From the NCBI GenBank assembly GCA_018167975.1, contig GCA_018167975.1_4333.1: a DNA stretch of 42,822 bases. One strand, given 5' to 3'. The position numbers and the translations under genes were made by a program. The notes under the pieces were generated by a model. It saw nothing but the letters and a program-made list of their open reading frames with translations. It was not told where the DNA came from and did not search any database. Each line of letters starts with the position of its first letter. Position 1 is the stretch's first letter. This document shows positions 26,176-26,367 of this stretch, one piece after another. This DNA comes from a phage.

Positions 26176-26367
26176 ATGACTGGCATTACTATGTTCTTCT
26201 TAATCATTATCGTTTTAGTTTATTTTATCCCGTTTTTAGTAGCCCATATGCGTGGCCATAAAGCGAAACTAGCCATATTCATGGCTAATCTGTTTCTTGG
26301 CTGGGTTCTGCTGCCATGGATATTTATTTTAATCTGGGCGTGCAACTCGAATGTCAAAGAGAAGTGA
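26176..26367 (+). CDS. Superinfection-immunity-like small membrane protein (Imm_superinfect-like)
   Basis: 63 aa, two TM helices; YFIPFLVAHMRGHKAKLAIFMANLFLGWVLLPWIFILIWA resembles the superinfection immunity family pattern; AGGAG RBS. Confidence 0.55.
   Translation: MTGITMFFLIIIVLVYFIPFLVAHMRGHKAKLAIFMANLFLGWVLLPWIFILIWACNSNVKEK

Follow-up and report, generated by a model that had tools for sequence, protein, structure and literature searches.

The imm gene and its cassette

The window analysed here, a 42,822-nucleotide stretch of phage DNA (GenBank assembly GCA_018167975.1), was placed in the genus Kagunavirus (Guernseyvirinae), small virulent siphophages of E. coli with a non-contractile tail. 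Its nearest relatives, among them Sciku, Snoke, Ivi and ORH_001, are about 90–93% identical across the phage genome; a single record returned at at least 99% identity apparently reflects just a 37-bp match and was set aside. The gene of interest, imm, occupies positions 26176..26367 of the plus strand, stop codon included, and encodes the 63-residue product MTGITMFFLIIIVLVYFIPFLVAHMRGHKAKLAIFMANLFLGWVLLPWIFILIWACNSNVKEK, which is identical to the peptide quoted in the first-pass annotation. A Shine–Dalgarno sequence, AGGAG, lies on the same strand at 26164..26168, 7 nt before the ATG. No in-frame start was found upstream of position 26176, the ATG being the first possible start of the open frame. 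Across the core of the gene (its last 45 codons), comparison with four orthologues gave dN/dS values of 0.03–0.14 with many synonymous changes, which marks imm as a coding gene kept by purifying selection rather than a chance ORF. Frames of just 63 codons do arise by chance, but the ribosome-binding site, the low dN/dS, a Pfam score nearly twice the gathering threshold and retention in hundreds of genomes all tell against such an origin. The conservation pattern already refutes the reading of imm as a chance ORF or non-functional remnant, to which we assign a practically negligible probability.

imm heads a rightward cassette, as the first-pass annotation had placed it, behind a promoter-like site. 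The cassette continues with a gene for a 376-residue metallophosphoesterase or ‘DNA repair exonuclease’ (26406..27536, plus strand; PHROG 704, E = 1.4e-162) and with small ORFs, one of which (27533..27763, plus strand, 76 residues) belongs to PHROG 2452, a family with no assigned function. It opposes the leftward structural operon, into which it is inserted between the tail tube gene and the genes of the tail assembly chaperone and tape measure protein. The gene of the tape measure protein (22918..25224, minus strand, 768 residues; PHROG 1538, E = 4e-195) starts about 950 bp from imm. The 38-nt gap between imm and the exonuclease gene contains no terminator-like site, either by scan or in the sequence itself, and the two genes are probably co-transcribed. 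The exonuclease gave weak matches to Metallophos (calcineurin-like phosphoesterase), GerE and phrog_836. It has an N-terminal helix–turn–helix (residues 1–45), with the weak matches being to GerE/LuxR (E = 0.011) and to PHROG 836, ‘late transcriptional activator’ (E = 8.8e-4), and the protein may also bind DNA as a regulator.

The first plausible terminator after imm lies beyond three or more further genes, at 27937–27956, where the terminator scan and the sequence reveal a G+C-rich hairpin (AAGGCCCCTTTCGGGGCCTT) with T-runs on both strands. We take it as the predicted bidirectional terminator at which the rightward imm cassette and, from the other side, the leftward tail-tube gene end. Because this hairpin separates the cassette from the tail tube gene, the leftward tail genes downstream of it (chaperone, tape measure and others) would need either read-through or a separate leftward promoter. 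A second terminator-scan match, at 26270–26287, falls inside the imm coding sequence, has only 3 G–C pairs and was rejected.

Upstream of imm, a promoter-like site was read by eye on the plus strand (26106..26134): TTGCAC at 26106–26111, a 17-nt spacer and TACTAT at 26129–26134. Transcription from it would begin near 26141, which makes the leader about 35 nt long. The first-pass annotation had described a strong, constitutive-looking promoter. Across eight Kagunavirus and Jerseyvirus loci, TTGC from T26106 and TA.TAT from T26129 are invariant and the hexamer spacing is kept, both in loci with imm and in loci with another gene downstream. Since the site is conserved in eight phages of two genera, the promoter is probably real. 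The claim of strength and constitutivity is unsupported: the site matches 7 of 12 sigma-70-like consensus positions, and a consensus promoter scan of the plus strand upstream of imm reported no site.

Back to back with this promoter lies a predicted RNA element of the opposite strand. Kagunavirus and Jerseyvirus share the block 26009–26100, which precedes the imm promoter, in almost unchanged form; identity in the coding sequences on either side is about 75%. Within this block, positions 26023–26087 of the minus strand match the full Rfam model RF02996 (int-alpA RNA) at 32.4 bits; the relatives Bas76 (locus L003, 1547–1611) and K1G (locus L007, 1693–1757) score 35.8 bits, equal to the gathering score, and 31.8 bits. 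An alignment of eight phages supports 14 base pairs, with 96.4% of cells paired and compensatory double changes at three pairs. Six G–U wobble cells would be mismatches on the plus strand and fit the minus strand only. The element sits in the leader of the operon for the tail assembly chaperone and tape measure protein; leftward transcription must therefore start in or cross the imm promoter region. We found no conserved leftward promoter for the chaperone and tape measure genes. The scan offered a minus-strand candidate, TTAACA-17-TAGTAT at 26156..26128, whose first hexamer is deleted in K1G and Bas76; it is not conserved, and we took it as a chance match. Predicted RNA folds of the imm leader plus coding sequence, and of the intergenic minus strand, were no more stable than those of shuffled sequence. 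Just upstream of the tail assembly chaperone start, three GGTTA repeats (GGTTAAGAGGTTACTGGTTAA) occupy 26016–26032; the pattern GGTTA...GGTTAC.GGTT is kept across both genera and could be a protein-binding site.

Family assignment and predicted structure

The first-pass annotation had suggested the Imm-type superinfection-immunity family from the residue pattern of the peptide, and profile searches bear this out. The Imm protein matches PF14373 (Imm_superinfect) over the entire profile (1–42 of 42, at residues 15–56) with E = 6.2e-14 and 52.1 bits, where the gathering score is 27.9 bits, and it matches PHROG 1039, ‘immunity to superinfection’, with E = 3.4e-23. On the PF14373 model, T4 Imm itself (NP_049660, 83 residues, from the T4 genome record) reaches 58.2 bits. 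BLASTP aligned the two proteins without gaps over 54 residues (E = 1e-12, 30% identity, 57% positives) at a constant offset of seven residues. The family consensus reads YFxPxxVAxxRxHxxxLAIFxLNLFLGWTxLGWVxALxWAC, and every invariant or near-invariant residue of it is present in Kagunavirus Imm. The signature Y-F-x-P-x3-A-x2-R-x-H ... N-L-F-L-G-W ... W ... W-A-C is found in the 63-residue protein, its residues including Y16, F17, P19, A23, R26, H28, I34, N38, G42, W43, W48 and W54. Among 161 family sequences, R26 is conserved in 97% and W43 in 99%. No holin family, and no other family scoring better than PF14373, appeared in the Pfam and PHROG scans. The sole other Pfam match, DUF3302, fell below its own threshold. 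Scans against NCBIfam and PADLOC gave no match, a PDB sequence search gave nothing at E ≤ 1, and a Foldseek search of the PDB with the model of Imm returned no match. By its sequence, the protein is a true relative of T4 Imm.

The family is very large and becomes visible only by sensitive methods. A single-sequence word-index protein search returned just 9 near-identical proteins; exhaustive and profile searches were needed to reveal the rest. The profile search with Imm found 2437 proteins at E ≤ 1e-5, and 6472 clusters (clustered at 50% identity) with E ≤ 0.001 came out of an exhaustive search across 1.84 billion cluster representatives. Ten distant cluster representatives were metagenomic, with uninformative names. 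The distant homologues examined on long contigs, three out of three, lie in prophage-like or mobile-element-like neighbourhoods, where the neighbouring genes include an integrase, a primase, a large serine recombinase and restriction-modification-like genes.

Closer to home, tblastn located the Imm protein in 449 phage records, most of them Salmonella Jersey-like and E. coli Kagunavirus phages, with weaker matches in Acinetobacter AP22-like phages, the T4-like phages (their imm genes) and one Vibrio phage. The genomic position of imm is the same in about 350 Guernseyvirinae records. Orthologues 92–98% identical to the protein (up to 98.4%) carry the GenBank name ‘superinfection immunity protein’. 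Because these near-identical orthologues are annotated already, the identification is correct but not new: the imm annotation adds nothing to what is known for orthologues up to 98% identical. Annotated examples are Ivi XXK85808, which differs from the present protein by one residue, K1G YP_009168803 and those of the Salmonella phages SETP7, skrot and vB_SenS-Ent2/3. In the annotated Kagunavirus and Jerseyvirus phages the gene likewise lies between the tail assembly chaperone and the exonuclease, at identities ranging from 98% (Ivi) to 68% (Jersey-like). What interest remains concerns how general the mechanism linking Imm to the tape measure protein is, together with the dimorphism of the slot that imm occupies.

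Compared with T4 Imm, the Kagunavirus protein shares the homologous core, the same full-length Pfam match and the same hydropathy layout. It is 20 residues shorter, lacking the C-terminal tail of T4 Imm (residues 64–83), and is closer to the family consensus, with H28, N38 and G42 at positions where T4 Imm has S, S and N. Hydropathy reveals hydrophobic segments at about residues 4–23 and 32–56, with the basic loop HMRGHKAK between them. An AlphaFold2 model, built with an 80-sequence alignment (pLDDT 96.4), contains four short helices at residues 3–16, 18–25, 31–41 and 45–55. In this model the first hydrophobic segment is consistent with one membrane-spanning helix kinked at P19, whereas the second folds as a helix-loop-helix whose loop holds G42-W43-V44. 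The earlier description of a two-transmembrane peptide thus holds for the two hydrophobic segments seen by hydropathy and falls short for the second of them, which does not form a single long helix in the model. Taken together, hydropathy and the model predict a small membrane protein with an N-terminal transmembrane helix and a hydrophobic helical core. By the positive-inside rule, the R/K-rich loop at residues 24–31 should be cytoplasmic and the N terminus periplasmic. The same orientation, with the N terminus in the periplasm, is reported for T4 Imm in work that a passage of bioRxiv 10.64898/2026.03.06.709160 cites.

Proposed exclusion of superinfecting phages

What is established experimentally for this family comes from T4. 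There, a fragment of gp29, the tape measure protein, is reported to co-purify with Imm, cryo-EM places Imm against a helical-bundle domain of gp29, and the mutants W50A (in the loop) and R33A (in the core) have reduced exclusion (bioRxiv 10.64898/2026.03.06.709160). In the authors' proposal, Imm keeps the tape measure protein from opening a conduit through the inner membrane, in a manner comparable to colicin immunity proteins and to HK97 gp15. With the seven-residue offset, R33 and W50 of T4 Imm correspond to R26 and W43 of the Kagunavirus protein, W43 lying in the loop between helices 31–41 and 45–55 of the AlphaFold2 model. Literature searches found no published tests of PF14373 members beyond T4 Imm, siphophage and Guernseyvirinae homologues included.

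Given the mechanism reported for T4, the retention of R26 and W43 and the hydrophobic segment of the local tape measure protein, Imm most likely acts at genome translocation. By analogy with T4, it probably excludes superinfecting phages as their genomes cross the inner membrane. Imm would be made after infection from the conserved sigma-70-like promoter, as the first product of its cassette, and would insert into the cytoplasmic membrane such that its N terminus faces outward and the basic loop HMRGHKAK inward. Later-adsorbing phages, at least those of its own kind, would then be kept from moving their DNA across the inner membrane. If the route is that of T4, Imm would engage the membrane-inserting region of the incoming tape measure protein and the translocation channel would stay shut. 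We hold this last step, binding of the incoming tape measure protein, more tentatively, as somewhat less likely than exclusion itself.

The tape measure protein of incoming sibling phages would be the class of protein that Imm is expected to block. Hydropathy of the local tape measure protein reveals just one strong hydrophobic segment, at residues 626–656; T4 gp29 likewise has one, at residues 227–258. No sequence similarity between the two was detectable (best E = 0.51), and they belong to different Pfam families. A motif, T-x-S/A-A-IEA-x-K, directly precedes the hydrophobic segment in both. The corresponding stretches (residues 613–638 of the local protein and 224–247 of gp29) lie at equivalent positions and are identical at 9 of 23 residues, a similarity that is not significant (E = 28) and was discarded. 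A further observation stands against co-evolution with the tape measure protein: the polar intramembrane residues of Imm are almost invariant across thousands of clusters, and tape measure proteins are hypervariable. A conserved partner or role would explain this pattern more readily than co-evolution of Imm with each phage's own tape measure protein.

The same conservation is the chief argument for a different membrane role. A true family member might serve some function other than excluding incoming DNA: it could protect the envelope from secondary adsorption, tune the timing of lysis or bind a conserved host component of the inner membrane. Besides R26, H28, N38, W43, W48 and W54, whose near-invariance across thousands of clusters suggests a conserved partner, two reports lean this way, namely the partial defect in lysis inhibition of T4 imm mutants (review PMC6832632) and the assignment of an orthologue to the ‘late’ class in the one Kagunavirus transcriptome paper found, on K1B4 (PMC12645636), itself a weak source in which the time course is long and the functional gloss incorrect. 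Set against these indications, exclusion with a direct complex between Imm and the tape measure protein is the only experimentally defined activity of the family (bioRxiv 10.64898/2026.03.06.709160), and the homologues on bacterial contigs occupy the prophage-like or mobile-element-like regions expected of exclusion genes; we counted the settings of these three distant homologues in favour of an exclusion role in general. We consider the other-role reading unlikely. The timing indications for imm itself are divided: the conserved sigma-70-like site and the nucleic-acid-metabolism neighbours point to early or middle expression, against the K1B4 ‘late’ class from that weak source (PMC12645636). 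The neighbouring genes in question are those of the imm cassette. The imm gene of T4 is early, and the ‘late’ class of the K1B4 orthologue was, by this comparison, counted against the exclusion explanation.

A narrower alternative keeps membrane activity and moves it to lysis. Imm is small and has two hydrophobic segments, and a review states that T4 Imm ‘reportedly molecularly resembles a holin’ (PMC6832632). Beyond the lack of any holin family in the Pfam and PHROG scans, the phage has its own two holins and endolysin at 268–1301, about 25 kb away, and its spanins at 34347–34839, all far from imm. A holin- or antiholin-like lysis peptide is already disfavoured and seems to us very improbable. 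The remaining alternative accepts exclusion and alters its target, with Imm defending mainly against unrelated phages rather than siblings. The high conservation of the core between E. coli and Salmonella phages (68% identity) and the span of the family across T4-like myoviruses, Acinetobacter AP22-like phages and Vibrio phages would suit such broad heterotypic exclusion. T4 Imm, however, is said to act on T-even phages, as Lu and Henning reportedly found in 1989, and we regard a mainly heterotypic function as improbable.

Exclusion at genome translocation, the preferred reading, has a counterpart among siphophages. HK97 gp15 follows the same proposed logic, in which a small inner-membrane protein blocks the entry of a siphophage genome that depends on the tape measure protein (bioRxiv 10.64898/2026.03.06.709160). 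It is expressed from a prophage and excludes via the tape measure protein, whereas the phage analysed here is virulent; the likeness is one of proposed logic, and no homology is claimed. Unlike T4, the present phage has a non-contractile tail and a tape measure protein unrelated in sequence to gp29. T4 Imm is reported to work by binding the tape measure protein (bioRxiv 10.64898/2026.03.06.709160, a 2026 preprint), and the value of the Kagunavirus gene lies in the experiments that it opens up. Kagunaviruses are small phages that grow on laboratory strains (BASEL Bas70–76), and the slot is filled by imm in some natural isolates and by an alternative gene in others. The system is suited to asking whether an Imm-family protein blocks genome entry by a non-contractile phage, and what decides its specificity.

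The T4 preprint (bioRxiv 10.64898/2026.03.06.709160) draws an analogy with colicin immunity, in which a small membrane protein neutralises an incoming pore-forming helical domain. The position of imm, within 1 kb of the tape measure gene, is reminiscent of the linkage of toxin and immunity genes, although the sequences are unrelated. T4 imm does not lie close to gene 29, so the linkage may be a coincidence.

An exchangeable slot at the head of the cassette

The first-pass annotation had called the unit a moron. In the sense of Hendrix and Juhala, a moron is an extra gene that is autonomous in having both a promoter and a terminator of its own and that only some relatives carry. The variable presence agrees with this description, as 99 related records have another gene in the slot; autonomy does not, because imm lacks a terminator of its own and shares its promoter with a multi-gene cassette.

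In Bas76, ST521_1PHIH2, ZC10 and others, the imm slot holds an unrelated ORF of 108–109 residues, with the conserved promoter region on one side and the exonuclease gene on the other, just as for imm. Its product has an N-terminal signal peptide and two conserved cysteines and belongs to PHROG 14165, which has no assigned function; it gave no Pfam match. This gene replaces imm in 99 phage records of both genera, among them the type phage Jersey and BASEL Bas72 and Bas76. As these 99 related phages do without imm at the slot, imm is dispensable, a point that we counted against the exclusion explanation. An AlphaFold2 model of the PHROG 14165 protein is all-helical (pLDDT 84.5); compared with the PDB it gave nothing specific, and no Spackle-like relation was seen.

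The exclusion system of T4 pairs the membrane protein Imm with the periplasmic protein Spackle. One could imagine that the first position of the Guernseyvirinae cassette is likewise a dedicated, swappable exclusion slot, filled by Imm (about 350 records) or by the unrelated helical, presumably secreted protein of PHROG 14165 (99 records). If true, it would parallel the T4 pair; Imm would act on the tape measure proteins of non-contractile phages as well, blockade of the tape measure protein by PF14373 members would be general across tail types, and the tight linkage between imm and the tape measure gene would be explained. We consider this idea, with its generality and its consequences for that linkage, doubtful.

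The imm gene itself also varies within Kagunavirus. Two N-terminal variants of the protein occur, one beginning MTGITMFF..., as here, and one beginning MSSLPVSL..., as in K1G, while residues 19–63 are nearly constant. The two forms (MTGITMFFLIIIVLV... here, 26176–26229, and MSSLPVSLILFALL... in K1G, locus L007, 1835–1888) differ at 19 of about 41 non-synonymous sites over these first 18 codons. The pattern points to a recombination boundary within the first helix, or else to relaxed constraint there.
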